Shown: positions 4,240 through 41,847 of the stretch, one piece after another
Layout: every line of letters begins with the position of its first letter
Numbering within the stretch: the stretch's first letter is position 1
Sequence record: MH445380.1
DNA: 64,000 bases
Direction: 5' to 3' (one strand)
Origin: Escherichia phage P1
The notes under the pieces: generated by a model
Database searches by the model: none
Told to the model about the DNA's origin: nothing
The model's input: the letters and a program-made list of their open reading frames with translations, nothing else
Made by a program: the position numbers and the translations under genes

Positions 4240-5271
4240 ATGTCCAATTTACTGACCGTACACCAAAATTTGCCTGCATTACCGGTCGATGCAACGAGTG
4301 ATGAGGTTCGCAAGAACCTGATGGACATGTTCAGGGATCGCCAGGCGTTTTCTGAGCATACCTGGAAAATGCTTCTGTCCGTTTGCCGGTCGTGGGCGGC
4401 ATGGTGCAAGTTGAATAACCGGAAATGGTTTCCCGCAGAACCTGAAGATGTTCGCGATTATCTTCTATATCTTCAGGCGCGCGGTCTGGCAGTAAAAACT
4501 ATCCAGCAACATTTGGGCCAGCTAAACATGCTTCATCGTCGGTCCGGGCTGCCACGACCAAGTGACAGCAATGCTGTTTCACTGGTTATGCGGCGGATCC
4601 GAAAAGAAAACGTTGATGCCGGTGAACGTGCAAAACAGGCTCTAGCGTTCGAACGCACTGATTTCGACCAGGTTCGTTCACTCATGGAAAATAGCGATCG
4701 CTGCCAGGATATACGTAATCTGGCATTTCTGGGGATTGCTTATAACACCCTGTTACGTATAGCCGAAATTGCCAGGATCAGGGTTAAAGATATCTCACGT
4801 ACTGACGGTGGGAGAATGTTAATCCATATTGGCAGAACGAAAACGCTGGTTAGTACCGCAGGTGTAGAGAAGGCACTTAGCCTGGGGGTAACTAAACTGG
4901 TCGAGCGATGGATTTCCGTCTCTGGTGTAGCTGATGATCCGAATAACTACCTGTTTTGCCGGGTCAGAAAAAATGGTGTTGCCGCGCCATCATCCACCAG
5001 CCAGCTATCAACTCGCGCCTTGGAAGGGATTTTTGAAGCAACTCACCGATTGATTTACGGGGCAAAAGATGACTCTGGTCAGCGATACCTGGCCTGGTCT
5101 GGACATAGTGCCCGTGTCGGTGCCGCGCGAGATATGGCCCGCGCCGGAGTTTCAATACCGGAGATCATGCAAGCTGGTGGCTGGACCAACGTAAATATTG
5201 TCATGAACTACATTCGTAACCTGGATAGTGAAACGGGGGCAATGGTGCGTCTGCTGGAAGATGGCGACTAG
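4240..5271 (+). CDS. cre: Cre tyrosine recombinase (343 aa)
   Basis: 343-aa ORF starting MSNLLTVHQNLPALPVDATSDEVRKNLMDMFRDRQAFSEHTWKMLLSVCRSWAAWCKLNNRKWFPAEPEDVRDYLLYLQARGLAVKTIQQHLGQLNMLHRRSGLPRPSDSNAVSLVMRRIRKENVDAGERAKQALAFERTDFDQVRSLMENSDRCQDIRNLAFLGIAYNTLLRIAEIARIRVKDISRTDGGRMLIHIGRTKTLVSTAGVEKALSLGVTKLVERWISVSGVADDPNNYLFCRVRKNGVAAPSATSQLSTRALEGIFEATHRLIYGAKDDSGQRYLAWSGHSARVGAARDMARAGVSIPEIMQAGGWTNVNIVMNYIRNLDSETGAMVRLLEDGD-type Cre, adjacent to loxP. Confidence 0.97.
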   Translation: MSNLLTVHQNLPALPVDATSDEVRKNLMDMFRDRQAFSEHTWKMLLSVCRSWAAWCKLNNRKWFPAEPEDVRDYLLYLQARGLAVKTIQQHLGQLNMLHRRSGLPRPSDSNAVSLVMRRIRKENVDAGERAKQALAFERTDFDQVRSLMENSDRCQDIRNLAFLGIAYNTLLRIAEIARIRVKDISRTDGGRMLIHIGRTKTLVSTAGVEKALSLGVTKLVERWISVSGVADDPNNYLFCRVRKNGVAAPSSTSQLSTRALEGIFEATHRLIYGAKDDSGQRYLAWSGHSARVGAARDMARAGVSIPEIMQAGGWTNVNIVMNYIRNLDSETGAMVRLLEDGD

Positions 5272-5613: not shown

Positions 5614-5651
5614 GGGGTCGTCTCAGAAAACGGAAAATAAAGCACGCTAAG
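5614..5651. repeat. Tn21-type 38-bp terminal inverted repeat (tnp end)
   Basis: GGGGTCGTCTCAGAAAACGGAAAATAAAGCACGCTAAG. Confidence 0.9.
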
Positions 5652-8613
5652 CCGGTTGCAGAGGCCGTAGCGGCCTGAACTTCCCCGCGCCGATCTTGGC
5701 GCTGCTGCGCCATAGGTAATCACCGGTCAGGTTGATGTGCTCCCAGCCGAGTGGCGACAGGTACTGCAATAGCGAGTCATCGACGGCATGACCATTGCCG
5801 CGCAACGCATGCGCCGCACGCTCCAGGTAGACCGTGTTCCACAGCACGATGGCCGCCGTCACCAGGTTGAGGCCGCTGGCCCGGTAGCGCTGCTGCTCGA
5901 AACTGCGGTCACGGATTTCACCAAGGCGGTTGAAGAACACGGCACGGGCCAGCGCATTGCGCGCCTCGCCCTTGTTCAGCCCGGCATGCACGCGGCGGCG
6001 TAGCTCGACGCTTTGCAGCCAGTCGAGGATGAACAGCGTGCGCTCGATGCGGCCCAACTCGCGCAGCGCGACGGCCAAGCCGTTCTGGCGCGGGTAGCTG
6101 CCGAGTTTCCTGAGCATCAGCGAGGCCGTCACCGTGCCCTGCTTGATCGAGGTGGCCAGCCGCAGGATTTCGTCCCAATGGGCGCGGACGTGCTTGATGT
6201 TGAGCGTGCCGCCGATCATCGGCTTGAGCGCGTCATAGGCGGCATCGCCCTTCGGGATGTAGAGCTTGGTGTCGCCCAGGTCGCGGATGCGCGGCGCGAA
6301 GCGGAAGCCCAAGAGGTGCATCAGGGCGAAGACGTGATCGGTGAAGCCCGCCGTGTCGGTGTAGTGCTCCTCGATCCGCAGGTCGGATTCGTGGTACAGC
6401 AGGCCGTCGAGCACGTAGGTTGAGTCGCGCAGGCCGACATTGACCACCTTGGTGTGGAATGGCGCGTATTGGTCGGAGATGTGGGTGTAGAAAGTCCGTC
6501 CTGGGCTGCTGCCATATTTTGGGTTGATGTGCCCCGTGCTCTTTGCCTTGCTAGCGGTTCGGAAATTCTGTCCGTCCGATGATGATGTGGTGCCATCGCC
6601 CCAGTGCCCGGCAAAGGGATGCCGAAACTGAGCGTTGACCAGTTCAGCCAACGCTGTCGAGTACGTTTCGTCGCGGGTATGCCAGGCTTGCAGCCAAGCG
6701 AGCTTCGCGTAGGTCGTGCCGGGGCAGGACTCGGCCATCTTGGTCAGGCCCAGGTTGATCGCGTCGGCCAGGATCGTGGTCAACAACAGGTTCTTGTCCT
6801 TGGCCAGATCGCCCGATTTCAAGTGCGTGAAGTGCCGGGTGAAGCCCGTCCACTCATCGACTTCGAGCAGCAGTTCGGTGATCTTGACGTGCGGCAGGAC
6901 CATGGCTGTCTGGTCTATCAGCGCCTGCGCGGTGTCGGGCACCGCCGCATCCAGCGGCGTGATCTTCAAGCCCGACTCGGTGATGATGGCATCCGGCAGG
7001 TCGTTGGCTGCCGCCATGCGGTTGACGGTGGCAAGTTGTGCTTCCAGCAGCGTCAGCCGCTCATGCAGATATTGTTCGCAGTCGGTGGCCACGGCCAGCG
7101 GCAATTCGCTGGACTGCTTGAGGCTGGTGAACTTCTCGGGCGGTACCAGGTAGTCCTCGAAGTCCTTGAACTGGCGTGAACCCTGCACCCAGATGTCGCC
7201 CGAGCGCAGGGAGTTCTTCAACTCGGACAGCGCGCACAGTTCGTAGTAGCGCCGGTCGATGCCGGCGTCGGTCATCACCAGTTTCTGCCAGCGCGGCTTG
7301 ATGAAGCCGGTCGGTGCATCGGCTGGCAGCTTGCGGGCGTTGTCGGTGTTCATGCCGCGCAGCACCTCAATGGCATCAAGCACGTTTTTGGCGGCGGGCG
7401 CGGCCCGCAGCTTGAGCACGGCAAGGAATTCCGGTGCATAGCGGCGCAGGGTGGCGTAGCTCTCGCCGATGCGATGCAGGAAATCGAAGTCATCGGGTTG
7501 CGCGAGCTTCTGCGCCTCGGTGACGCTCTCGGCAAAGGAATCCCAGGACATGACGGCCTCGATGGCGGCAAACGCATCGCGGCCTGATTGCTTGGCGTCG
7601 ATCAGCGCCTGACCGATGCGCCCGTACAGACGTACCTTGGCGTTGATGGCCTTGCCTGACGCCTGGAACTGCTGCTGATGCTTATTCTTGGCAGCGTTAA
7701 ACAGCTTACCCAGGATGCGGTCGTGCAGGTCGATGATTTCGTCGGTGACGGTGGCCATGCCCTCGGTGGCCAGCGCCACGAGAGTGGCGTAGCGCCGTTG
7801 CGGCTCGAATTTGGCCAGGTCGGCGGGTGTCATCTGGCCGCCCTCGCGGGCAATCTTGAGCAGGCGGTTCTGGTGAACCAGCCGCTCGATGCCGGTAGGC
7901 AGATCGAGTGCCTGCCATGCCTTGAGGCGTTCGATGTGTTCCAGCATATGCCGCGAATTTGGCTTGGCCGGAGACTGGCGCAACCAAGCCAACCAGGTCG
8001 TCTTGCCGTTGTCCCGGCGCTTGAGCAGATCGTCGAGGCGGCGGCGATGCGCGTCCGCCAGTGGTTCGGCCAAGGCGTCGTAGATGCGCCGGTTAGCACG
8101 GGTGATCGCCTCGGCACTCGCCCGCTCGACGGCGTTGAGGGCGGGCAGAATGACCGACTGCCGCCGCAGGTGCCCGATCAAGGCGCTGGCCAGCACGATG
8201 CCTTTGTCGGTTTGCATCGCCAGCTCGGTCAGCATCTGGACGGCCTGCCGGTAATGGCTCATGGTGAAGGGCCGGAAACCGAACACGGTTTGCAGCTCGC
8301 TCAGGTGCTCGCGCCGGGTCTGCTCCCGCTGGCCGTACTCGTTCCAGCTTTCGACGCCGACCTTGAGCTGGTCGGCGACCAGCTTCAACAAGGGCGGGAA
8401 CGGTAGTTCATCGACGCCCAGGATGACGCCGGGAAAGCGCAGGTAACAGAGCTGCACCGCGAAGCCCAGCCGATTGGCTGGCCCGCGCCGCTGTCGGATG
8501 ATCGAGAGGTCGGTATCGTTGAATGTGTAATGTCGGATCAGGTCGTCCTTGGAGTCCGGCAACGCCAGCAGGCTTTCCCGCTCGGCGGCGGACAGGATGG
8601 AACGACGTGGCAT
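5647..8613 (-). CDS. tnpA: Tn21-type transposase TnpA (988 aa)
   Basis: 988-aa Tn3-family transposase ORF ending inside the IR; followed by tnpR. Confidence 0.95.
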
Positions 8614-10649: not shown

Positions 10650-11522
<873 letters not shown>

Positions 11523-14871: not shown

Positions 14872-15663
14872 ATGAGCAAGATTTTTGGAATCGTAAATAT
14901 AACCACCGATAGTTTTTCCGATGGAGGACTTTATTTAGATACAGATAAGGCAATTGAGCATGCTCTGCATTTGGTTGAAGATGGAGCAGATGTGATTGAT
15001 TTGGGAGCCGCTTCCAGTAATCCTGATACAACTGAAGTGGGCGTTGTGGAAGAAATCAAAAGACTCAAACCTGTCATTAAGGCTTTAAAAGAAAAAGGCA
15101 TTTCTATTTCTGTTGATACATTTAAACCTGAGGTTCAGAGTTTTTGCATAGAACAAAAGGTTGATTTTATTAATGATATTCAAGGTTTTCCTTATCCTGA
15201 GATTTATTCAGGCTTGGCAAAGTCAGATTGCAAACTTGTGTTGATGCACTCCGTTCAGCGAATTGGTGCAGCTACTAAAGTTGAAACGAATCCGGAAGAG
15301 GTTTTTACTTCCATGATGGAATTTTTTAAAGAAAGAATTGCTGCTTTAGTTGAGGCTGGTGTAAAGCGTGAACGAATTATTCTTGATCCGGGTATGGGCT
15401 TCTTTTTAGGCTCTAATCCAGAAACATCTATTCTTGTTTTGAAGCGTTTCCCTGAAATTCAAGAAGCTTTTAATTTGCAAGTAATGATTGCAGTGTCACG
15501 GAAATCATTCTTAGGTAAAATAACTGGAACCGATGTGAAATCTCGTTTAGCACCAACTCTTGCAGCAGAAATGTATGCATACAAAAAAGGTGCAGATTAT
15601 CTCCGCACCCATGATGTTAAGTCTTTATCAGATGCCTTGAAAATATCCAAAGCCCTAGGTTAG
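14872..15663 (+). CDS. sul3: Sulfonamide-resistant dihydropteroate synthase Sul3 (263 aa)
   Basis: 263-aa DHPS-like ORF in the qacH-IS-sul3 context typical of sul3 integrons. Confidence 0.88.
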   Translation: MSKIFGIVNITTDSFSDGGLYLDTDKAIEHALHLVEDGADVIDLGAASSNPDTTEVGVVEEIKRLKPVIKALKEKGISISVDTFKPEVQSFCIEQKVDFINDIQGFPYPEIYSGLAKSDCKLVLMHSVQRIGAATKVETNPEEVFTSMMEFFKERIAALVEAGVKRERIILDPGMGFFLGSNPETSILVLKRFPEIQEAFNLQVMIAVSRKSFLGKITGTDVKSRLAPTLAAEMYAYKKGADYLRTHDVKSLSDALKISKALG

Positions 15664-17344: not shown

Positions 17345-18136
17345 TTATTTGCCGACTACCTTGGTGATCTCGCCTTTCACGTAGTGAACAAATTCTTCCA
17401 ACTGATCTGCGCGGGAGGCCAAGCGATCTTCTTCTTGTCCAAGATAAGCCTGTCTAGCTTCAAGTATGACGGGCTGATACTGGGCCGGCAGGCGCTCCAT
17501 TGCCCAGTCGGCAGCGACATCCTTCGGCGCGATTTTGCCGGTTACTGCGCTGTACCAAATGCGGGACAACGTAAGCACTACATTTCGCTCATCGCCAGCC
17601 CAGTCGGGCGGCGAGTTCCATAGCGTTAAGGTTTCATTTAGCGCCTCAAATAGATCCTGTTCAGGAACCGGATCAAAGAGTTCCTCCGCCGCTGGACCTA
17701 CCAAGGCAACGCTATGTTCTCTTGCTTTTGTCAGCAAGATAGCCAGATCAATGTCGATCGTGGCTGGCTCGAAGATACCTGCAAGAATGTCATTGCGCTG
17801 CCATTCTCCAAATTGCAGTTCGCGCTTAGCTGGATAACGCCACGGAATGATGTCGTCGTGCACAACAATGGTGACTTCTACAGCGCGGAGAATCTCGCTC
17901 TCTCCAGGGGAAGCCGAAGTTTCCAAAAGGTCGTTGATCAAAGCTCGCCGCGTTGTTTCATCAAGCCTTACGGTCACCGTAACCAGCAAATCAATATCAC
18001 TGTGTGGCTTCAGGCCGCCATCCACTGCGGAGCCGTACAAATGTACGGCCAGCAACGTCGGTTCGAGATGGCGCTCGATGACGCCAACTACCTCTGATAG
18101 TTGAGTCGATACTTCGGCGATCACCGCTTCCCTCAT
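17345..18136 (-). CDS. aadA1: Aminoglycoside 3''-adenylyltransferase AadA1 (263 aa)
   Basis: ORF MREAVIAEVSTQLSEVVGVIERHLEPTLLAVHLYGSAVDGGLKPHSDIDLLVTV... Confidence 0.95.
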   Translation of the reverse strand: MREAVIAEVSTQLSEVVGVIERHLEPTLLAVHLYGSAVDGGLKPHSDIDLLVTVTVRLDETTRRALINDLLETSASPGESEILRAVEVTIVVHDDIIPWRYPAKRELQFGEWQRNDILAGIFEPATIDIDLAILLTKAREHSVALVGPAAEELFDPVPEQDLFEALNETLTLWNSPPDWAGDERNVVLTLSRIWYSAVTGKIAPKDVAADWAMERLPAQYQPVILEARQAYLGQEEDRLASRADQLEEFVHYVKGEITKVVGK

Positions 18137-18228: not shown

Positions 18229-19488
18229 TCAACGATTGGGATTTGATGTACTTTCCGCACTTTGTAGCGCGACCACATCATGCTCCCCCTGGCCGCGAGA
18301 GCCCTTCACTCGGGAAACACAAGACAGACCGAGCACGACTGTTGCAAGGGTCAAACAGTACACGACAACCGGCCAAGCCGTGTTGCGCGGCAACAGCGAA
18401 ATGATCAACGTTCCGATGCTTCCTAGCAGTACACCGCCCAAGCAGAAGTAGACTGCCGTGACCGTTCCAGCAACATGGTCGAATCCTCGAAGAGCGCCAT
18501 TGGGCGCCACAGATACCGCTGTGGCGACACCAATACCCACTAGCCACATTGGAGCAATAAAGCCTAACACGGACTGCAAAGCCCATATTTCGGTGATGGC
18601 AAGCAATACTGCTCCAGCTATCAGGCATCCCATTCCCATTCGCAAGACACTTGGGCTGCCCCACTTGGGTATCACACGCCCCATAAAACGAGCCGTAAAC
18701 ACCATGGCAATTGCCACTGTGGCGAACAGCAGGCTGAAGCCAAGCTGAGACACACCTTGCCTGCCCATCATTAGTCCGGGCGCAATGGAGAAAAAGACGA
18801 AGAAGCTACCCATTCCAGCGGCGTAACACAACGTGTACAACCAGAAGTTCAGGCACTTAACGGGGAGTAGCAGCTGCGACCATTGCAAGCCCGCAACTCG
18901 TTGCACCCGGGTTTCAGGCCAGAATCGCCACGCTGCTGCAGATGCAGCGATCATGCCCAAACCTAGAAACGCAAAGATAGCCCGCCACCCAAGCCACATG
19001 TCGACGAGCGCTCCGAGCAATGGGCCTACCGCCGGGACCATGGCCAGCATGGATCCGAGTATGCCGTAAATGACATTACTTTCCTCGCGACCTGCGTAAA
19101 TGTCACGTACTGTTGCAAATGTGGAAACAAGGCACGCCGAGGCACCACAAGCCTGAAGAATCCGAAGCCCCAGAAAGACTTCAGCCGATGACGTAAGAGC
19201 GAGGCCCATTGACGCCACAACGTAGGCGAGGCCACCTCCCAGTAGAACGGGGCGGCGCCCCAGTCGGTCCGATAGCGGTCCAAACAAGAGCTGACCGGCA
19301 CCAATCATGACCAAGTACGTTGTCAGCGTAAGCTGAATTGTGCTCGCTGTCGTACCAAGCGCGTTTGGCATAAACGGCACTGCTGGCAAGTACATGTCCA
19401 TGCCGAGTGATGCCAATAAATCGAACGGTGATAACAACAACACCGTGGCGGCAAGGGAGTACCGCCAACTAAAGTTTTTTGAGCTCAC
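18229..19488 (-). CDS. cmlA1: Chloramphenicol efflux MFS transporter CmlA1 (419 aa, GTG start inferred)
   Basis: 12-TM MFS ORF; track ORF extends 16 codons upstream of the VSSKNFSWRY start; long 5-prime leader before the aadA2 attC. Confidence 0.9.
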   Translation of the reverse strand: MSSKNFSWRYSLAATVLLLSPFDLLASLGMDMYLPAVPFMPNALGTTASTIQLTLTTYLVMIGAGQLLFGPLSDRLGRRPVLLGGGLAYVVASMGLALTSSAEVFLGLRILQACGASACLVSTFATVRDIYAGREESNVIYGILGSMLAMVPAVGPLLGALVDMWLGWRAIFAFLGLGMIAASAAAWRFWPETRVQRVAGLQWSQLLLPVKCLNFWLYTLCYAAGMGSFFVFFSIAPGLMMGRQGVSQLGFSLLFATVAIAMVFTARFMGRVIPKWGSPSVLRMGMGCLIAGAVLLAITEIWALQSVLGFIAPMWLVGIGVATAVSVAPNGALRGFDHVAGTVTAVYFCLGGVLLGSIGTLIISLLPRNTAWPVVVYCLTLATVVLGLSCVSRVKGSRGQGEHDVVALQSAESTSNPNR

Positions 19489-19688
19489 GAAACCATCTCC
19501 TTGAACAAAGGATTTGGCGGCGCTCCCGTAGAGCAAAAGGATTCATGAGAACGCCGCAACAACCGAAAAATGAAGGTTGCTGCGGCTTACTTGTCTGCGT
19601 TCTTGGAAGTGCTCATCTGCTGACTATCTCATGATTGAATTTGAATCGTAACAACTTTCAAGCAACTCTGCAAGGAGCCTTATTGTGC

Positions 19689-19749: not shown

Positions 19750-20541
19750 TCATTTACCAACTGACTTGATGATCTCGCCTTTCACAAAGCGAATAAATTC
19801 TTCCAAGTGATCTGCGCGTGAGGCCAAGTGATCTTCTTTTTGTCCCAGATAAGCTTGCTTAGCTTCAAGTAAGACGGGCTGATACTGGGCAGGTAGGCGT
19901 TTTATTGCCCAGTCGGCAGCGACATCCTTCGGCGCGATTTTGCCGGTTATTGCGCTGTACCAAATGCGGGACAACGTAAGCACTACATTTCGCTCATCGC
20001 CGGCCCAGTCGGGCTGCGAGTTCCATAGCTTCAAGGTTTCCCTCAGCGCCTCGAATAGATCCTGTTCAGGAACCGGGTCAAAGAATTCCTCCGCTGCCGG
20101 ACCTACCAAGGCAACGCTATGTTCTCTTGCTTTTGTAAGCAGGATAGCTAGATCAATGTCGATCATGGCTGGCTCGAAGATACCCGCAAGAATGTCATTG
20201 CGCTGCCATTCTCCAAATTGCAGCTCGCGCTTAGCCGGATAACGCCACGGGATGATGTCGTCATGCACGACAAGGGTGACTTCTATAGCGCGGAGCGTCT
20301 CGCTCTCGCCAGGGAAAGCCGAAGCCTCCATAAGGTCATTGAGCAATGCTCGCCGCGTCGTTTCATCAAGCTTTACGGCCACAGTAACCAACAAATCAAT
20401 ATCGCTGTATGGCTTCAGGCCGCCATCCACTGCGGAGCCGTACAAATGCACGGCCAGCAACGTTGATTCCAGATGGCGCTCAATGACGCTTAGCACCTCT
20501 GATAGTTGGTTCGAAATTTCGATGGTCACCGCTACCCTCAT
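19750..20541 (-). CDS. aadA2: Aminoglycoside 3''-adenylyltransferase AadA2
   Basis: ORF MRVAVTIEISNQLSEVLSVIERHLESTLLAVHLYGSAVDGGLKPYSDIDLLVTV...; paralog of aadA1. Confidence 0.9.
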   Translation of the reverse strand: MRVAVTIEISNQLSEVLSVIERHLESTLLAVHLYGSAVDGGLKPYSDIDLLVTVAVKLDETTRRALLNDLMEASAFPGESETLRAIEVTLVVHDDIIPWRYPAKRELQFGEWQRNDILAGIFEPAMIDIDLAILLTKAREHSVALVGPAAEEFFDPVPEQDLFEALRETLKLWNSQPDWAGDERNVVLTLSRIWYSAITGKIAPKDVAADWAIKRLPAQYQPVLLEAKQAYLGQKEDHLASRADHLEEFIRFVKGEIIKSVGK

Positions 20542-20598
20542 GATGTCTAACACCAGAATTAAGCCGCGCCGCGAAGCGGCGTCGGCTTGAATGACTTG

Positions 20599-21302: not shown

Positions 21303-22145
21303 CTATGACGTTTGCCCCTTAATCGCCTGGATAATCCTCGGCCAGTCTTCATGATGCAACTCATGTCCCGTGCCTTCGAGTGTCAGCATTTTTGAACCAC
21401 GAATCGCATCTTTCAGTGCCAACCCATGCACATAAGGAAGTACAGGATCCTCCGTGCCGTGAATGATCAAAGTTGGTACAGCTATCTCATTTAATCTCCC
21501 GAGCCATCTCTCGCCACCACCTAAAGTAGTGTGGTTGAATGTTGTCAGGATATTCGGAGTGCGATCAAAATTTAACTCAGCGATGTTTTGTATCTTCTCA
21601 GCGTCAAAAGCATGCGCAGTACCTGAGTTGATTCGCCACGCTCCGACCTGATACGCGACGACAGCATCTCTATCAGACCAATCCAGCGATTCCGCCCGTT
21701 GGTGATACTCAATGATGGCAGGATCAAAAGCGGGCATATCCGGATCTGCATCTGCAAGCCGTTCTGAAGCAATCAGCGTCAAGCTCTTCACACGTTTCGG
21801 ATACTTGAGAGCTACAAGCTGGGAAAGAAATCCCCCCAAAGACATGCCGACTAAATGAGCAGCTTCCAGACCATAACCATCAATGACGCGAACCACATCA
21901 TCTGCTAATTCTTCAACGGAATATGGAGCCTGACCTGGCTCATAGCTTGTTGATTTCCCGGTATCACGGTGGTCGTACCGGATCACATAGCGACCCATTT
22001 TGGCAAGTTGGGAACAAAACTCATCAGGCCACCACACCGCAGACGACATTGCCCCCATGATCAGAATAATGGGTTCATGGGCCGGGTCGCCGAATGATTC
22101 GGTATAGAGTGAAATCGCTTTATCAACAACTACCTTTTCTTTCAT
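21303..22145 (-). CDS. estX: Alpha/beta-hydrolase esterase cassette EstX (280 aa)
   Basis: GMSLGG nucleophile elbow; ATG at 22145 (MKEKVVVDK); track ORF extends into attI1. Confidence 0.8.
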
Positions 22146-22311
22146 ACTTAAATTGCCTTCGAGTTCTACGTACAACTTTGTTTTAGGGCGACTGCCCTGC
22201 TGCGTAACATCGTTGCTGCTCCATAACATCAAACATCGACCCACGGCGTAACGCGCTTGCTGCTTGGATGCTCGAGGCATAGACTGTACAAAAAAACAGT
22301 CATAACAAGCC
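22146..22311. other. attI1 integron recombination region (first integron)
   Basis: Sequence between the intI1 start and the first cassette; mirrored at 25124..25269 in the second integron. Confidence 0.6.
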
Positions 22312-23040
22312 ATGAAAACCGCCACTGCGCCGTTACCACCGCTGCGTTCGGTCAAGGTTCTGGACCAGTTGCGTGAGCGCATACGCTACTTGCATTACAG
22401 TTTACGAACCGAACAGGCTTATGTCCACTGGGTTCGTGCCTTCATCCGTTTCCACGGTGTGCGTCACCCGGCAACCTTGGGCAGCAGCGAAGTCGAGGCA
22501 TTTCTGTCCTGGCTGGCGAACGAGCGCAAGGTTTCGGTCTCCACGCATCGTCAGGCATTGGCGGCCTTGCTGTTCTTCTACGGCAAGGTGCTGTGCACGG
22601 ATCTGCCCTGGCTTCAGGAGATCGGAAGACCTCGGCCGTCGCGGCGCTTGCCGGTGGTGCTGACCCCGGATGAAGTGGTTCGCATCCTCGGTTTTCTGGA
22701 AGGCGAGCATCGTTTGTTCGCCCAGCTTCTGTATGGAACGGGCATGCGGATCAGTGAGGGTTTGCAACTGCGGGTCAAGGATCTGGATTTCGATCACGGC
22801 ACGATCATCGTGCGGGAGGGCAAGGGCTCCAAGGATCGGGCCTTGATGTTACCCGAGAGCTTGGCACCCAGCCTGCGCGAGCAGCTGTCGCGTGCTGTCG
22901 CGTGCACGGGCATGGTGGCTGAAGGACCAGGCCGAGGGCCGCAGCGGCGTTGCGCTTCCCGACGCCCTTGAGCGGAAGTATCCGCGCGCCGGGCATTCCT
23001 GGCCGTGGTTCTGGGTTTTTGCGCAGCACACGCATTCGAC
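22312..23040 (+). pseudogene. intI1: intI1 pseudogene: 10-bp tandem duplication frameshift plus 3-prime truncation
   Basis: Identical to the intact intI1 (24110..25123) up to codon ~196; then ctgtcgcgtg duplicated at ~22885..22904; frame lost; junction with tnpR sequence at 23040/23041. Confidence 0.85.
22399..22427 (-). promoter_or_regulatory. Integron Pc promoter (TGGACA-17 bp-TAAACT)
   Basis: Hexamers read on the cassette (minus) strand inside the intI1 5-prime region. Confidence 0.6.
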
Positions 23041-24109: not shown

Positions 24110-25123
24110 CTACCTCTCACTAGTGAGGGGCGGCAGCGCATCAAGCGGTGAGCGCACTCCGGCACCGCCAACTTTCAGCACATGCGTGTAAATCATCGTC
24201 GTAGAGACGTCGGAATGGCCGAGCAGATCCTGCACGGTTCGAATGTCGTAACCGCTGCGGAGCAAGGCCGTCGCGAACGAGTGGCGGAGGGTGTGCGGTG
24301 TGGCGGGCTTCGTGATGCCTGCTTGTTCTACGGCACGTTTGAAGGCGCGCTGAAAGGTCTGGTCATACATGTGATGGCGACGCACGACACCGCTCCGTGG
24401 ATCGGTCGAATGCGTGTGCTGCGCAAAAACCCAGAACCACGGCCAGGAATGCCCGGCGCGCGGATACTTCCGCTCAAGGGCGTCGGGAAGCGCAACGCCG
24501 CTGCGGCCCTCGGCCTGGTCCTTCAGCCACCATGCCCGTGCACGCGACAGCTGCTCGCGCAGGCTGGGTGCCAAGCTCTCGGGTAACATCAAGGCCCGAT
24601 CCTTGGAGCCCTTGCCCTCCCGCACGATGATCGTGCCGTGATCGAAATCCAGATCCTTGACCCGCAGTTGCAAACCCTCACTGATCCGCATGCCCGTTCC
24701 ATACAGAAGCTGGGCGAACAAACGATGCTCGCCTTCCAGAAAACCGAGGATGCGAACCACTTCATCCGGGGTCAGCACCACCGGCAAGCGCCGCGACGGC
24801 CGAGGTCTTCCGATCTCCTGAAGCCAGGGCAGATCCGTGCACAGCACCTTGCCGTAGAAGAACAGCAAGGCCGCCAATGCCTGACGATGCGTGGAGACCG
24901 AAACCTTGCGCTCGTTCGCCAGCCAGGACAGAAATGCCTCGACTTCGCTGCTGCCCAAGGTTGCCGGGTGACGCACACCGTGGAAACGGATGAAGGCACG
25001 AACCCAGTGGACATAAGCCTGTTCGGTTCGTAAACTGTAATGCAAGTAGCGTATGCGCTCACGCAACTGGTCCAGAACCTTGACCGAACGCAGCGGTGGT
25101 AACGGCGCAGTGGCGGTTTTCAT
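24110..25123 (-). CDS. intI1: Class 1 integron integrase IntI1 (337 aa, intact)
   Basis: 337-aa tyrosine recombinase ORF ending ...[24 protein letters not shown]. Confidence 0.95.
25008..25036 (+). promoter_or_regulatory. Integron Pc promoter (TGGACA-17 bp-TAAACT) of second integron
   Basis: tggaca at 25008..25013 and taaact at 25031..25036. Confidence 0.6.
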
Positions 25124-33295: not shown

Positions 33296-34873
33296 TTATC
33301 CTCGTTTTTCCCAAAACTGTTTTGCCAGTTCGCTCAGAGCGCTAGTTAACTGAGCGACAGATTTCGCACTTTGCAAATTATTCTGCCCGGTCTGTACATT
33401 GGTATCAGCAGCATCGCGTATATTGATAATACTGCGGTTTATGTCTTCACTTACTGCTCCCTGCTGCTCGACCGCAGTCGCTATTTGCGCGTTCATGTCG
33501 GTAATTTCGTTAACGCGTTGGCCAATTCCATCAAGAGCTGTAGCTGCTTCCTCTGCGTGAGCTACACTCGTGTGCGCTTGCCGACTACTTTGCTCCATGA
33601 CTGTAACAGCGGATTGCGCTCGCTCTTGTAGAGCGCTGATCATGCTTTGAATATCCGTTGTCGATTGCTGTGTGCGAGCAGCAAGACTGCGAACCTCATC
33701 GGCGACAACAGCAAAACCACGCCCCTGCTCACCAGCACGCGCGGCCTCAATTGCTGCGTTGAGTGCCAACAAATTCGTTTGCTCGGCGATCCCTCGTATA
33801 ACGTCAAGAACTTTTGATATCTCGTTACTTTGACCTTCAAGCTCATGAATAACCTGAGTGGCTTGCCTAATTTCACCTTCAAGGGCAGTGATTGACTGGC
33901 TTGTGTGGGCTACCAGACGCTGGCCAGATGCCGTCTCAGTGTCTGCTCTTCCGGCCGCATCTGCAGCATGCTGTGCATTGCTCGCAACCTCTTGAATGCT
34001 TGCCACCATTTGGTTTACTGCCGTTGCTATTTGATCTGTCTCTGCCTGCTGCTCAACTGTAAGTACATTGCTTGACTCAATATCCTTTAGTAGGCCTCGG
34101 GTGTGTTCGCTAAGCCGATTTGATGCATCACCTATGCGACCTACTATGGCGCCTGTTTCAGCTTGCATCATTCGTAAAGCAAACTCTATTTGGCCAAACT
34201 CATCGGTGCGCCCAGTGTAGAGGGATTGACTTAATGGGTTATTGGAAATATTCCTGGCTCTTTCAACCAGTCTTCCAAGAGGAGAGAGAATAGCCAAAAC
34301 ACTAACAGAGCTTAAGCTTCCTGACATTAAAGTGGCTAACAATAAGCTGCTTATTGATGTATCAGTAAGCATGCCGGCAGCCATTGCGCTTGATATAATA
34401 CTACCCCATATGAGCAAGAGTATTTTCACGGAAAAGCTAGCAGCCAATTTCGGCCTCGCGGCCTTCCCGCTTCTCAATTGAGCATATAATTTTTCCGCAG
34501 CCAAAACCTGCTCAGGTTCAGGCTTGGTCCTTACAGACTGGTATTCAACAATCGAACCATTCTTAGCTATTGGCGTTACATAAGCACTTACCCAATAGTG
34601 GTCGCCATTTTTACAGCGATTTTTTACTAGCCCCATCCATGAGCGGCCAGATTTTAATGTACTCCACATATGCTCAAATGCAGCAGGCGGCATATCTGGG
34701 TGTCTTACGATGTTGTGAGGCTGGCCTAATAGTTCTTCCTCAGTGAAACCACTGATTTTAATGAAGTCAGGATTAACGTACGTGATATGGCTTTGAGGGG
34801 AGGTAGTCGAAAGAATATTGGCATCTTTTGGGAGTTCTAAGTTTCGACCCGTCACTGGTAAATTCTGGCGCAT
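33296..34873 (-). CDS. mcp: PAS-domain methyl-accepting chemotaxis-like protein of Tn1721 (orfI)
   Basis: 525-aa ORF: N-terminal PAS-like segment, TM region, highly conserved MCP signalling domain (...[31 protein letters not shown]...). Confidence 0.85.
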
Positions 34874-35746: not shown

Positions 35747-38713
35747 ATGCCGCGTCGCTTGATCCTCTCGGCCACGGAGCGGGACACCCTGCTTGCGCTG
35801 CCGGAAAGCCAGGATGACCTGATCCGCTACTACACCTTCAACGACTCCGACCTGTCGCTGATCCGCCAGCGACGCGGCGACGCCAACCGCCTCGGCTTCG
35901 CCGTGCAGCTCTGCCTGCTGCGCTACCCCGGTTACGCGCTGGGAACCGACAGCGAGCTGCCCGAGCCGGTCATCCTGTGGGTGGCGAAGCAAGTCCAGGC
36001 CGAGCCGGCGAGCTGGGCAAAGTACGGCGAGCGCGACGTGACCCGTCGCGAGCATGCCCAGGAACTGCGCACCTACCTGCAACTGGCCCCGTTCGGCCTG
36101 TCCGACTTCCGCGCCCTGGTGCGCGAGCTAACCGAGCTGGCCCAGCAGACCGACAAAGGCTTGCTGCTGGCCGGTCAGGCCCTGGAGAGCCTACGGCAGA
36201 AACGACGCATCCTGCCGGCGCTGAGCGTGATTGACCGGGCCTGCTCGGAAGCCATTGCGCGAGCCAATCGGCGGGTCTACCGCGCCCTGGTCGAACCACT
36301 CACGGACTCGCATCGGGCCAAGCTGGACGAGCTGTTGAAGCTCAAGGCCGGCAGCAGCATCACCTGGTTGACCTGGCTGCGCCAGGCACCGCTGAAACCC
36401 AACTCTCGGCACATGCTGGAACACATCGAGCGGCTGAAGACATTTCAGTTGGTGGACTTGCCCGAAGGCCTGGGCCGGCACATCCACCAGAACCGCCTGC
36501 TCAAGCTGGCCCGCGAGGGTGGGCAGATGACGCCCAAAGACCTCGGTAAGTTCGAGCCGCAGCGCCGCTACGCGACCCTGGCCGCCGTGGTGCTGGAGAG
36601 CACCGCGACCGTGATCGATGAGCTGGTCGATCTGCATGACCGCATCCTGGTCAAGCTGTTCAGCGGCGCGAAGCACAAGCATCAGCAGCAGTTCCAGAAG
36701 CAGGGCAAGGCGATCAACGACAAGGTGCGCCTGTACTCCAGGATCGGCCAGGCGCTGCTGGAAGCGAAGGAAAGCGGCAGCGACCCCTATGCCGCCATCG
36801 AGGCGGTGATTCCCTGGGACGAGTTCACCGAGAGCGTCAGCGAGGCCGAGCTGCTGGCCCGGCCGGAAGGCTTCGACCACCTGCACCTGGTCGGCGAGAA
36901 CTTCGCCACCCTGCGCCGTTACACGCCGGCCTTGCTGGAGGTGCTGGAACTGCGCGCCGCGCCGGCCGCGCAAGGCGTGCTGGCAGCCGTGCAGACCCTG
37001 CGTGAGATGAACGCCGACAACCTGCGCAAGGTGCCGGCCGATGCACCCACGGCCTTCATCAAGCCGCGCTGGAAGCCGCTGGTGATCACCCCGGAAGGCC
37101 TCGACCGGAAATTCTACGAAATCTGCGCCCTGTCCGAGCTGAAGAACGCCCTGCGCTCCGGCGACATCTGGGTCAAGGGCTCGCGGCAGTTCCGCGACTT
37201 CGACGACTACCTGCTGCCGGCCGAGAAGTTCGCCGCACTCAAGCGCGAGCAGGCCCTGCCCCTGGCGATCAACCCGAACAGCGACCAGTACCTGGAAGAG
37301 CGTTTGCAGCTGCTGGACGAGCAGTTGGCCACCGTCACCCGCCTGGCCAAGGACAACGAGCTGCCCGATGCCATCCTCACCGAGTCAGGGCTGAAAATCA
37401 CCCCGCTGGATGCGGCGGTGCCGGATCGGGCGCAGGCGCTGATCGACCAAACCAGCCAGTTACTGCCGCGCATCAAGATCACCGAATTGCTGATGGACGT
37501 GGACGACTGGACGGGCTTCAGCCGCCACTTCACCCACTTGAAGGACGGGGCCGAGGCCAAAGACAGGACGTTGCTGCTGTCCGCAATCCTCGGTGATGCG
37601 ATCAACCTCGGGCTGACCAAGATGGCCGAGTCGAGCCCCGGCCTGACCTACGCCAAGCTGTCCTGGCTGCAAGCCTGGCACATCCGCGACGAAACCTATT
37701 CGGCGGCCTTGGCCGAGCTGGTCAACCACCAGTATCGCCACGCCTTTGCCGCCCACTGGGGCGACGGCACGACCTCATCCTCCGATGGCCAGCGCTTCCG
37801 CGCGGGTGGCCGGGGCGAGAGCACCGGGCACGTCAACCCGAAGTACGGTAGCGAGCCGGGACGGCTGTTCTATACCCACATCTCCGACCAATACGCGCCA
37901 TTCCACACCAAGGTGGTCAATGTCGGCCTGCGCGACTCAACCTACGTGCTCGACGGCCTGCTGTACCACGAGTCCGACCTGCGGATCGAGGAGCACTACA
38001 CCGACACGGCCGGCTTCACCGATCACGTCTTTGCCCTGATGCACCTGCTAGGCTTCCGCTTCGCGCCGCGCATCCGCGACCTCGGCGAAACCAAGCTGTA
38101 CGTGCCGCAGGGCGTGCAAGCCTACCCGACGTTGCGCCCGCTGATCGGCGGCACCCTGAACATCAAGCACGTGCGTGCCCACTGGGACGACATCCTGCGC
38201 CTGGCCAGCTCGATCAAGCAGGGCACCGTCACCGCCTCGCTGATGCTGCGCAAGCTCGGCAGCTACCCGCGCCAGAACGGACTGGCCGTGGCCCTGCGCG
38301 AGCTGGGCCGGATCGAGCGCACGCTGTTCATCCTGGACTGGCTGCAAAGTGTTGAACTGCGCCGCCGCGTGCATGCCGGCCTGAACAAAGGTGAGGCGCG
38401 CAACTCGCTGGCCAGGGCGGTGTTCTTCAACCGCCTTGGGGAAATCAGGGATCGGAGCTTCGAGCAGCAGCGCTACCGGGCCAGCGGCCTCAACCTGGTG
38501 ACGGCGGCTATCGTGCTGTGGAACACGGTGTACCTGGAACGCGCCACCCAGGGGTTGGTCGAGGCCGGCAAGCCGGTGGACGGCGAGCTGCTGCAATTCC
38601 TGTCGCCGCTGGGCTGGGAGCACATCAACCTAACCGGCGATTACGTCTGGCGGCAGAGCCGCAGACTGGAAGACGGGAAGTTTCGGCCCTTACGGATGCC
38701 CGGAAAACCTTAG
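35747..38713 (+). CDS. tnpA: Tn1721-type transposase TnpA (988 aa)
   Basis: 988-aa Tn3-family transposase, diverged from the Tn21 TnpA at 5647..8613. Confidence 0.95.
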
Positions 38714-39766: not shown

Positions 39767-40408
39767 ATGGATAAGAAAATATGCGTTGTTTCGATGAGCG
39801 TCGGCAAACCGGCGTCAATGACTGCTGCATGGATCAATAACGAGCTGATAATGGCTGAGCGGACCAGCTACCCTGAACGCCGCCGCGATATGGAACTCCA
39901 GCTGCTGCGCGAATTGCGAGAAAAAGAGGAAAAGGGTTTTATCGTGCTGGTGGAAGAGGAAAACAGCTTTATTACTGGTCGAGTTGGCCAGCGTGTAAGG
40001 TTGCGCGATCCCTTCATGAACGGCAGGCCGGTACTGATTGAAGCAATGCAGATTTACAAGGAGCTGGAACGCCAGAAAGCGATCAAGTTACCGCGCAAGG
40101 AATCCGGCAAATACATCCTCCACCAAAGCATCTTCGATTCCGAACACGATAAAAAAGGCGATGAATTTTTCAACATCAACTGGAGCGAAATAACGACAGA
40201 GCATGTTCTGACGTTACTATGTTGCTTTGCGACGGAATACAACAACGTTGCCAGCGCCGAGTACATCAGGGCAATGGCTTCTGAAGTGGATAGTCGTGAT
40301 GACTCATCGCTGATAGCGTCATATATAAACATCATCAAGAAAACTCAAATTATGGGATGCGCTAGAGTTCCTCAAGGAATACTCACCGGAAAGAATAATA
40401 TTCTATAA
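39767..40408 (+). CDS. mat: Hypothetical protein in P1 mat position (213 aa from ATG 39767); AT-rich 3-prime end
   Basis: ATG preceded by GGGGG Shine-Dalgarno; track ORF 39620..40408 starts at an upstream alternative codon; name from synteny only. Confidence 0.45.
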   Translation: MDKKICVVSMSVGKPASMTAAWINNELIMAERTSYPERRRDMELQLLRELREKEEKGFIVLVEEENSFITGRVGQRVRLRDPFMNGRPVLIEAMQIYKELERQKAIKLPRKESGKYILHQSIFDSEHDKKGDEFFNINWSEITTEHVLTLLCCFATEYNNVASAEYIRAMASEVDSRDDSSLIASYINIIKKTQIMGCARVPQGILTGKNNIL

Positions 40409-40453
40409 CCTACGAAGGTTATTTGTTACTTTCTGCGTAAACCCACAACTAAC

Positions 40454-40473
40454 CTTCCTAAGTTAAGGAAGGT
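40454..40473. terminator. Bidirectional hairpin between convergent genes
   Basis: ccttcc-taagttaa-ggaagg stem-loop followed by tattt. Confidence 0.5.
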
Positions 40474-40505
40474 ATTTATCATGAAGTGTAGACATAAGCG
40501 TATTA

Positions 40506-41546
40506 TTACATGGGCTTAACCACAACCTTTCCGTATATATCAAGTTTTGATTGTAATACGTTGACGTGAGACAATTCTTTATTCGAACTAACTTTATCTA
40601 AAATTATATTTTTATCTTTTTCAGTCATGTTATACCCTAAGGTAATTTGCTTGAATGCAGAAAAAGGAATTTTCTTTAAGTTAATTTCATGATAGTCATG
40701 AAAAACATCAGGATACTCATTCAATAGGCAATCATCAATCGATGGAGAGACAATGCTTCCTATTTTTCTCTCGCAATCAGCCAATGGAAAAATAATTCTA
40801 CTTTCATTTTCAGGAAGCCACTCTTCACCTTTTGTATAAAGAAGCCTATTAATAAAAAGCTCGCGAACTGGATCTCGATTTAAGATCCCATGCAATGTAT
40901 TATCTTTATTCTTTATATCTATATTCCTCGATGGCGCAGGATAGCCATTAAATCGCACAGCGCCTTTATAATAGGTTACAGATGCTCTATCTTCTGGATT
41001 ATAACTAACATCACACGGCCGATATATTTTAAAAAAATCGTGTGTTTCATCGAAAACTACAGCAAACCCCTTTCCTATCGATGCATAATGAGTCCACATG
41101 TGTAGATTGCAATCACTTTTTGATAGAGAGAATACACCAAGATGACAGCTTACGGCTTCTACTAAATAATCGTTAAGGTACGTTACTATTTCTTGGAGTT
41201 TAGATTCATCATATGAATCCATTGAGGTAAAACCTTCATTGATTAACAAGTGTGGAAAATCCTCTCCGTATCGTTTCCCGCAAGGTTTTAAATAATACTC
41301 TAACTCTTGTATAGATGGGACATAAGATGGATCTCGTTGCATTTTCTTAAATTCATTTCTAGCCCATGCGTAATCGGCTGGTGAAAATTTATTAAAAAAT
41401 GGAAGAAGTCGCGACTCACTCGACGGATCATTAAGATACTTTGGTTGCGTTGCTCTAAAGAAACCATCCTCCAGACAAGATGTTCTAATGTGCATGCCCG
41501 GCCAAGGTTTTTCCATATAACTCTCGCCTATATATTTAACTAACAC
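40506..41546 (-). CDS. AT-rich hypothetical protein (346 aa from GTG 41546; ATG alternative at 41516) occupying the P1 res-mod position; candidate defence gene, DUF2971-like motif
   Basis: Single long ORF, ~35% GC by eye against ~50% flanks; motif LHMWTHYASIGKGFAVVFDETHDF; AGGA 10 nt upstream of GTG. Confidence 0.6.
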   Translation of the reverse strand: MLVKYIGESYMEKPWPGMHIRTSCLEDGFFRATQPKYLNDPSSESRLLPFFNKFSPADYAWARNEFKKMQRDPSYVPSIQELEYYLKPCGKRYGEDFPHLLINEGFTSMDSYDESKLQEIVTYLNDYLVEAVSCHLGVFSLSKSDCNLHMWTHYASIGKGFAVVFDETHDFFKIYRPCDVSYNPEDRASVTYYKGAVRFNGYPAPSRNIDIKNKDNTLHGILNRDPVRELFINRLLYTKGEEWLPENESRIIFPLADCERKIGSIVSPSIDDCLLNEYPDVFHDYHEINLKKIPFSAFKQITLGYNMTEKDKNIILDKVSSNKELSHVNVLQSKLDIYGKVVVKPM

Positions 41547-41569
41547 TGTATATCGATCCTGTTGTTTAA

Positions 41570-41586
41570 GCCCATATCATATGGGC
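41570..41586. other. Perfect 17-bp palindrome between lxc stop and the candidate gene start
   Basis: gcccatatcatatgggc. Confidence 0.6.
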
Positions 41587-41598
41587 TTTAAATGATTA

Positions 41599-41847
41599 TT
41601 AATCAGCGTTCAGAAGCAATGCGTTATCTATGATGATCTGCTCCCATTCTTCGAATGCCCGGTCGCGGACGCCCTGGGGAACACTGTTAGTTTTGAAATC
41701 GACGACCGTCCGCCATTTTCCGTCAGGACGGTACATGCGCAGAGCTTTACTTCCCCCTTCCCTGCGCACCTCAACGTTATGCTTATCAGCAAACTCTTGC
41801 AATGCTCGTAGCGTCCCATGCTTTACTGTGTAGTATCGCTTCTTCAA
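41599..41847 (-). CDS. lxc: Small protein in P1 lxc (bof) position, 82 aa
   Basis: 82-aa basic ORF downstream of ulx and darB; assigned from synteny. Confidence 0.55.
   Translation of the reverse strand: MKKRYYTVKHGTLRALQEFADKHNVEVRREGGSKALRMYRPDGKWRTVVDFKTNSVPQGVRDRAFEEWEQIIIDNALLLNAD

Follow-up and report, generated by a model that had tools for sequence, protein, structure and literature searches.

A DUF2971 gene with a predicted ADP-ribosyltransferase-like fold as single-gene cargo of the mat-lxc slot in a P1-like phage-plasmid

In the P1 reference, the interval between mat and lxc holds res and mod, the two genes of the EcoP1I restriction-modification (R-M) system, with IS5 lying within mod. 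What takes their place in a P1-like element that carries neither gene, and what might it be doing there? We addressed this question for a stretch of 64,000 nucleotides from sequence record MH445380.1 (Escherichia phage P1), hereafter called the window, whose first letter is position 1. Between mat and lxc the window holds a single AT-rich open reading frame (ORF), which a sequence-only reading had put forward as an undescribed one-gene defence module. Our analysis identifies it as a gene for a protein of the DUF2971 family, carried in a slot where many different cargoes alternate. An anti-phage function of the abortive infection (Abi) type is plausible for this protein and is the best hypothesis that we can offer.

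The ORF (40506..41546, minus strand, 346 amino acids (aa), GTG start) is the sole substantial one between lxc and mat, the latter being encoded on the plus strand and ending at 40408. An identical 346-aa coding sequence (CDS) is annotated by the Prokaryotic Genome Annotation Pipeline (PGAP) as WP_029401522.1. The longest stop-free run in the interval 40409-41598 is 356 codons, far above chance for such AT-rich DNA: 2000 shuffles averaged 76 codons and never exceeded 158. The guanine plus cytosine (GC) content is 0.354 in the ORF and 0.353 in the interval, with a value of 0.283 at third codon positions (GC3) of the ORF, compared with 0.493 for ref plus the mat core, 0.490 for lxc plus ulx and 0.520 for darB (GC3 0.577). 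The ORF list, this difference in composition and the P1 reference together bear out the claim that one AT-rich ORF stands in place of res and mod. The gene order, mat(+), DUF2971 ORF(-), lxc(-), ulx(-), darB(-), agrees with annotated P1-like records. We favour the GTG start because the MLVKY N-terminus that it provides is nearly invariant in homologs and because PGAP uses it; the alternative ATG at 41516 is ruled out on the same grounds, MLVKY being common to 45 homologs that are 36-53% identical to the protein. An antisense ORF of 71 aa (40890..41105) was without support and was taken as spurious. That the locus is a degraded R-M remnant, a transposase or a resistance gene is unsupported by Pfam, NCBIfam and PADLOC, none of which gave such a signature; the sequence-only reading had recognised none either.

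Membership of the DUF2971 family was established by Pfam PF11185, which matched the protein with 27.3 bits (E 9.3e-06; gathering cut-off 22 bits), aligning aa 150-251 with profile positions 1-89 of 89. The protein contains the segment LHMWTHYASIGKGFAVVFDETHDF, whose MW-x-HYA core had pointed to DUF2971 proteins from the letters alone, and the Pfam match starts exactly at its M150-W151, so that this resemblance proved right. PF11185 also matches all 46 aligned homologs (E-values up to 10 accepted; best 1.9e-09). The further suggestion that the family is associated with defence agrees with PADLOC, where four models of the candidate family PDC-S31 match: PDLC04994 (2.1e-16), PDLC04990 (1.6e-14), PDLC04991 (9.4e-11) and PDLC04992 (7.2e-06). 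These matches cover the models in part (for PDLC04990, aa 118-332 against 92-243 of 259) and are reported without PADLOC's own coverage rules. The protein falls into phrog_1762 of PHROGs, a group of unknown function, at E 1.3e-71, and NCBIfam has no family for it. A large protein database gave 96 clusters, all of ~345-350 aa, of which those named by their source are DUF2971 proteins and those with a named organism come mostly from Enterobacterales, Vibrio and Shewanella; in that database the nearest relative outside P1-like elements is only ~50% identical.

The main mechanistic lead, which the sequence-only reading had missed, came from the predicted structure. An AlphaFold2 model built on the homolog alignment was confident, with a mean predicted local distance difference test score (pLDDT) of 92.1 and a predicted template modelling score (pTM) of 0.87, and its predicted core is an ADP-ribosyltransferase (ART)-like fold, closest to DarT and Tpt1. 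This assignment is remote, because the ART-like match spans only ~125 residues, Foldseek against the PDB and BFVD returned nothing at E <= 0.001, and HMMER found no solved relative: PDB chain sequences gave no match at E up to 10, either with the single sequence (phmmer) or with the 46-sequence profile. DarT models in PADLOC likewise gave no match at E up to 10, and among Pfam, PADLOC and PDB chains no characterised ART family was matched by sequence, DUF2971 being the only Pfam family found. The top Foldseek matches were weak (tRNA-splicing endonuclease subunits; probability 0.44, ~54 columns), and we gave them no weight. The ART assignment agrees with an independent published placement of DUF2971 in the ART superfamily beside DarT and AbiGi, where profile-profile similarity is reported (PMC12522546). 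Taken together, the protein is very probably DUF2971/ART-like.

In the published description of DUF2971 proteins, motif I is poorly conserved, motif II has a strictly conserved Tyr, motif III is an ExE and the helical inserts are large (PMC12522546). Our alignment of 46 homologs has 29 invariant positions, among them T33, P35, L38, N39, D40, G137, S140, M150, W151, Y154, W243, E246, E248 and R250, and F30, R31 and Q34 are at least 90% conserved. The strictly conserved Tyr and the ExE are therefore present as Y154, E246 and E248, whose correspondence to the published motifs follows from their positions inside the Pfam match. On position and conservation, R31 may serve as motif I, in place of the His or Arg that usually ends strand beta-1, with Y154 as the putative motif II and E246-x-E248 as the putative motif III.

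The position of the gene provides a second line of evidence. Using Lxc as an anchor we found 80 IMG/VR loci, 73 of which yielded the segment that runs from the lxc stop to the conserved core of mat; these 73, three annotated records and the window gave a sample of 77 loci, anchored by blastn, which clustered into 14 cargo classes. The DUF2971 cassette (c1) has 12 members (nine IMG/VR loci, two annotated records and the window) and is always 1319 bp long. A SIR2_2 protein matched by the PDC-S25, ThsA and LmuA models makes up c2 and c14 (11 + 1 loci), the slot is empty (158-168 bp) in c3 (8), and c4 (8) carries type III Res + Mod in 5.2 kb. Two CapRel-type RelA/SpoT proteins are found in c5 (7, i.e. 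six IMG/VR loci and SJ46) and c10 (3), a PIN_12 protein with a PDC-S34-like C-terminus in c6 (6), two GNAT variants in c7 and c8 (5 + 4), and a 3.7-kb block of JukA, a helix-turn-helix protein and an antirepressor in c9 (4). The remaining classes hold a YaaC-like protein with a weakly deoxyribosyltransferase-like protein (c11, 3), an EAL protein with a 170-aa protein (c12, 3) and a 135-aa lipoprotein-like protein (c13, 2). In all classes but the empty one the cargo is AT-rich (GC 0.32-0.43). The slot protein of the sister P1-like phage SJ46 matches PDB 7ZTB over all 373 residues and is CapRel-SJ46, a validated anti-phage fused toxin-antitoxin (PMC9712102).

The DUF2971 gene thus lies between the mat core and the lxc stop and alternates with other genes in otherwise collinear elements, as would be expected of the horizontally exchanged single-gene cargo that had been proposed. 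The proposal that this is a defence locus fared equally well, given the CapRel-SJ46, type III R-M, SIR2-like, PIN and JukA cargoes at the same position. With proven defence systems (EcoP1I-type R-M and CapRel) and several recognised defence-type domains in the same slot, position argues strongly that the DUF2971 gene has a defence role as well. The interval 40409-41598, which the sequence-only reading had taken as the varying unit, does vary; the true unit is larger, 40280-41598, and takes in the last 129 nt of mat (40280-40408). The C-terminal 42 residues of Mat encoded there diverge with cargo class around a motif that is kept (..SLL.P.INII.GTQ...VPQG.LTGK.N..), which indicates that the recombination breakpoints lie inside mat and that the Mat C-terminus hitch-hikes with the cargo. 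By analogy, the mat-lxc slot appears to behave like the defence hotspots of P2 and P4. In the literature that we searched on P1-like surveys, a mat-lxc hotspot is not described; a DefenseFinder survey of P1/D6 phage-plasmids from 2025 lists type III R-M, CapRel, dGTPase and PrrC and mentions neither the DUF2971 gene nor the hotspot. The slot is a more useful by-product of this analysis than the DUF2971 gene itself: with conserved anchors and at least 14 alternative cargoes, it is a ready place to seek new defence genes.

Several cargoes of the slot are without recognised defence annotation and are candidate defence or exclusion genes by position. These are the two GNAT variants (~201 aa), the YaaC-like 346-aa protein with its 169-aa, weakly nucleoside-deoxyribosyltransferase-like neighbour, the 229-aa EAL-domain protein with its 170-aa neighbour, which is without a Pfam match, and the 135-aa lipoprotein-like protein. 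The SIR2_2 cargo, the commonest after DUF2971, occurs in a 338-aa form (11 loci) and a 435-aa form (one locus); the shorter form is without the C-terminal ~100 residues of the longer one and may be either a truncation or a distinct variant.

How does the DUF2971 gene compare with known systems? The sequence-only reading had called the module undescribed, which does not hold: PGAP names the DUF2971 protein in 90 PLSDB plasmids, PDC-S31 is published and the DUF2971 protein Aristaios is validated. The gene is a new defence candidate of a known kind, and not an undescribed kind of module. No paper describing the P1 DUF2971 gene was found in the literature searched, and only two DUF2971 papers surfaced when PDC-S31 and PF11185 were looked for. 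Aristaios is a 316-aa single-gene DUF2971 protein with an ART-like model from the Lactococcus plasmid pUCCL641_199 (Grafakou et al. 2024, PMC11381338), and has an Abi-like phenotype, blocking phage transcription and protein production (PMC11381338, PMC13064643, PMC12967558). It shares with the P1 protein the single-gene organisation, the DUF2971 domain and the ART-like predicted fold; it differs in coming from another host phylum, in its demonstrated Abi-like phenotype and in its closest structural match, which is reported to be 5ZJ5 rather than DarT and Tpt1. The sequence relation between the two is probably very low, as tblastn against PLSDB reached no Lactococcus record.

PDC-S31 is one of 145 'guilt-by-embedding' candidates drawn from BREX, DISARM and type I R-M loci (Payne et al. 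2024, bioRxiv 10.1101/2024.01.29.577857). It is a single-gene candidate, as is the P1 gene, which its four hidden Markov models match at E 2e-16 to 7e-6. These models have 208-273 positions and align to the core of the P1 protein (~aa 118-332), which is thus a larger relative, and the P1 gene lies in a phage cargo slot and not in or beside BREX, DISARM or type I R-M. In DarTG, the toxin is partnered by the macrodomain antitoxin DarG, whereas the P1 cassette has one gene and no such partner; DarT (~210 aa) is also without the large helical and C-terminal additions of the P1 protein, and HMMER finds no similarity between the protein and DarT models. By analogy, the P1 protein may work like DarTG, of which it is not a member. 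CapRel-SJ46 occupies the same slot as a single AT-rich gene of similar size (373 aa) and combines effector and sensor in one polypeptide, the logic that we propose for the P1 protein, but it is of unrelated fold and chemistry (a RelA/SpoT tRNA pyrophosphokinase), lies on the opposite strand and has been validated experimentally. EcoP1I res/mod shares the slot, the AT-rich composition (0.36) and transcription in the lxc direction with the DUF2971 gene, but is a two-gene, 5.2-kb R-M system whose mechanism differs entirely from the one proposed here.

Family, predicted fold, position, the upkeep of intact copies of a solitary mobile gene and the precedent of Aristaios together suggest that the DUF2971 gene probably encodes a stand-alone, single-gene Abi-type anti-phage effector which would act through ART-type chemistry and is carried as interchangeable mat-lxc cargo. 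Such a system could operate as follows. The lysogen would make the DUF2971 protein at a low level, probably because transcription from the lxc promoters, which are in constitutive use, continues through the 41565-41591 hairpin, or else because a weak promoter overlaps the 3' end of lxc. The protein would be kept inactive by its helical insert (aa 56-135) and/or its C-terminal alpha/beta region (aa 255-346) until, upon infection by another phage, a phage-derived cue frees the putative catalytic site R31 / Y154 / E246-x-E248. With nicotinamide adenine dinucleotide (NAD+) as donor, the enzyme would then ADP-ribosylate either nucleic acid or some part of the machinery for gene expression; transcription and protein synthesis of the phage would halt and the infection would abort, with the outcome that the population of P1 lysogens is protected and competitors of P1 are excluded.

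Several points weigh against this hypothesis. No phenotype is on record for the P1 DUF2971 protein or its close enterobacterial relatives, PDC-S31 is explicitly an untested candidate family, and the relationship to Aristaios is known at the level of the Pfam family alone. The proposed motifs were assigned from position and conservation. Expression in the lysogen is assumed, and a promoter scan gave no sigma-70-like promoter for the DUF2971 gene. As regards position, the slot also holds GNAT, EAL and lipoprotein-like cargoes without a known defence role, so that position alone is no proof, and the neighbouring ulx and darB are counter-defence and not defence genes. A bolder version of the hypothesis can be put forward only tentatively, and we would not expect all of it to hold: that the protein is a self-regulated, antitoxin-free relative of DarT which senses a phage component via its helical insert or C-terminal domain and ADP-ribosylates DNA, mRNA or tRNA so as to switch off phage gene expression, and that the slot is a P1 defence hotspot whose unannotated cargoes are new anti-phage systems. 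If so, a mechanism would be defined for the very large DUF2971 family.

Were the gene to protect E. coli, its product would be the first DUF2971 defence protein from enterobacteria that can be studied in a tractable host-phage system (E. coli with P1 and the coliphage collections), in which the trigger and substrate could be identified for a family present in thousands of species. It would also explain the roughly one in eight P1-like phage-plasmids that are without EcoP1I, as having a different immunity gene instead; many of these carry resistance genes.

The lxc-ulx backbone is present in 699 PLSDB plasmids, and 90 of these (13%) carry the DUF2971 cassette, their hosts being E. coli (70), Salmonella (14), Shigella (4) and Klebsiella (2). 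Among complete E. coli genomes the cassette was found in 63 of 5426, with 64 of its 65 places on plasmids, and among deposited phage genomes it occurs only in MH422554 (Punavirus P1, from infant faeces). Homologs are found in three other genomic contexts. In a P2-like prophage of Salmonella, a 47% identical homolog stands solitary and on the opposite strand, with tail genes S and V on either side of it, a position that we take to be the P2 'orf30' variable site. A 51% identical homolog lies at a prophage end in Serratia, where it adjoins smpB, and in Klebsiella a homolog adjoins an AAA_15/AAA_21 ATPase in a chromosomal islet that is not a prophage. No conserved partner gene was seen in these three contexts, which implies a single-gene system without a DarG-like antitoxin. 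Separately, we observed a distant DUF2971 gene of 252 aa (~26% identity) on non-mobilizable plasmids of ~105-128 kb from Klebsiella, Enterobacter, Citrobacter and Salmonella; the one such plasmid record inspected was IncFIB, and there the gene follows a small AAA ATPase and a 118-aa gene.

These data bear on another view, in which the gene is a moron without a defence or phage function, i.e. an inert or selfish passenger, or perhaps encodes an effector that is secreted or toxic and used against other cells; only its linkage to P1 would then keep it in place. AT-rich morons without a known role are frequent, and a Legionella survey predicts that ~18% of DUF2971 proteins are effectors (PMC12522546). 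However, all 12 of the copies extracted are intact, representing six alleles, and the changes are mostly synonymous: measured against the window allele, synonymous versus non-synonymous changes number 4:4, 10:2, 4:3, 7:2 and 5:5, with none at a family-invariant residue. The 29 invariant residues, including the catalytic-looking ExE, are maintained across homologs only 36-53% identical, and the gene has repeatedly entered variable slots, in three temperate-phage backbones that are unrelated to one another. As for an effector, the contexts examined hold no secretion-associated or conserved neighbour; a signal peptide was not scanned for. We therefore regard a passenger or exported effector as unlikely.

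An anti-phage effector could also work by hydrolysing, i.e. depleting, NAD+, as SIR2 and TIR effectors do, instead of transferring ADP-ribose. NAD+ glycohydrolase activity is common among enzymes of the ART fold, the SIR2_2 protein related to ThsA and PDC-S25 is the slot's most frequent other cargo, from which it would follow that NAD+-directed effectors are selected here, and the positional and family evidence for defence applies equally. Against this, DarT and Tpt1, whose structures are closest, are not NADases but transferases with DNA or RNA as their target, and the reported effect of Aristaios is specifically on phage transcription and protein production, with DNA replication not flagged. 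NAD+ depletion is thus an improbable mode of action for the P1 protein. Least probable is a phage-serving ART for host takeover or counter-defence, used in P1's own infection as are T4 Alt, ModA and ModB in theirs, for although the gene adjoins lxc, ulx and darB (regulation and anti-restriction), phage-encoded ARTs that modify host proteins are well known and phrog_1762 points to a family common in phage genomes, genuine defence systems (R-M and CapRel) take its place in the slot of other elements, P1 can dispense with any cargo there, 8 of 73 loci being empty, relatives occur in the non-prophage chromosomal islet by an ATPase and, in the form of PDC-S31 relatives, inside BREX and R-M loci, and the only tested DUF2971 protein is plasmid-borne and host-protecting.

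If the gene is an Abi-type effector, it has to be expressed in the lysogen, and the hairpins around it are relevant to this. The spacers beside the ORF, of 97 nt and 52 nt, are taken up by hairpins, which the sequence-only reading had placed at 40454..40473 and 41570..41586 and regarded as insulating the gene. Both are real (40452-40473 and 41565-41591), but the insulating role did not survive comparison. A GC-rich hairpin lies directly after the lxc stop, within the first ~40 nt, in all 14 cargo classes, with a different sequence in each, several being variants of GCCCGG-loop-CCGGGC; it is kept by position and not by sequence. Since every cargo class has its own post-lxc hairpin, the one at 41565-41591 is not an insulator peculiar to the DUF2971 gene, and is the class-specific version of a positionally conserved element, probably the lxc terminator or attenuator, or a boundary element. 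Only 18 nt separate this hairpin from the GTG, and a DUF2971 transcript must therefore traverse it or start within it. In the P1 reference, the mod promoter P2mod overlaps the lxc 3' end, P1mod lies ~70 bp into the cargo and three lxc promoters lie upstream, a layout that makes read-through or a junction promoter plausible for the DUF2971 gene. The features of the locus and the other coordinates are collected in Table 1.

Table 1. Coordinates of the DUF2971 locus, of the resistance region of the window and of features in other loci (L numbers are our locus labels)
Feature	Coordinates	Strand	Remarks
DUF2971 gene	40506..41546	-	346 aa from GTG, coordinates including the TAA stop; no other credible gene in the cassette
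Codons F30-D40 (FRATQPKYLND)	41427..41459	-	proposed ART motif I region; strand at residues 29-31 in the model
Codons M150-A155 (MWTHYA)	41082..41099	-	start of Pfam DUF2971 match; Y154 is the proposed motif II tyrosine
Codons E246-R250 (ENESR)	40797..40811	-	proposed catalytic ExE motif III; strand at residues 248-254 in the model
Exchangeable segment, cargo class c1	40280..41598	.	from within the mat 3' end to the base preceding the lxc stop codon; blastn anchoring and clustering
Hairpin between convergent mat and DUF2971 3' ends	40452..40473	.	8-bp stem, 6-nt loop, free energy (dG) -11.9, z -2.8; terminator-like on the + strand
Hairpin between lxc stop (41599) and DUF2971 GTG (41546)	41565..41591	.	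13-nt arms, 92% complementary; RNA-fold stem 9 bp, dG -12.1, z -3.9
mat conserved core	39767..40279	+	left-hand slot anchor; PGAP mat start corresponds to 39767, longest ORF start 39620
lxc (bof)	41599..41847	-	82 aa; conserved right-hand slot anchor
cre	4240..5271		
Resistance region	5647-38713		~33 kb, between cre and ref
Tn3-family transposase	5647..8613	-	988 aa, Tn1721-like; bounds the resistance region
blaTEM	10650..11510		
sul3	14872..15663		
aadA1	17345..18136		
cmlA	18229..19536		
Second aadA	19750..20553		
estX	21303..22382		
intI1	24110..25123		
Chemotaxis-protein-like gene	33296..34873		Tn1721-type
Tn3-family transposase	35747..38713	+	988 aa, Tn1721-like, inverted relative to the other; bounds the resistance region
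Salmonella homolog	L092:8001-9050		P2-like prophage
Serratia homolog	L088:8001-9053		prophage end
Distant DUF2971 gene	L095:5001-5759		252 aa
GNAT cargoes	L030:10055-11055, L042:10248-11265		two variants
YaaC-like + 169-aa cargo	L025:10250-12076		
EAL + 170-aa cargo	L006:10246-12113		
Lipoprotein-like cargo	L056:10250-10959		
SIR2_2 cargo, 338-aa vs 435-aa form	L005:732-2263 vs L012:10250-11788		
SJ46 darB region	L001:5299-7781		

Two further observations concern the surroundings of the slot. The darB region of SJ46 is annotated with two separate methyltransferase CDSs of 2091 nt and 4482 nt, as compared with the single 6.8-kb darB of the window, which suggests that darB is split or frameshifted in SJ46. 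In the window itself, the resistance region is bounded by the two inverted transposases and combines blaTEM, sul3, two aadA genes, cmlA, estX and intI1 with the Tn1721-type gene, i.e. this P1-like phage-plasmid carries a class 1 integron of the sul3 type.

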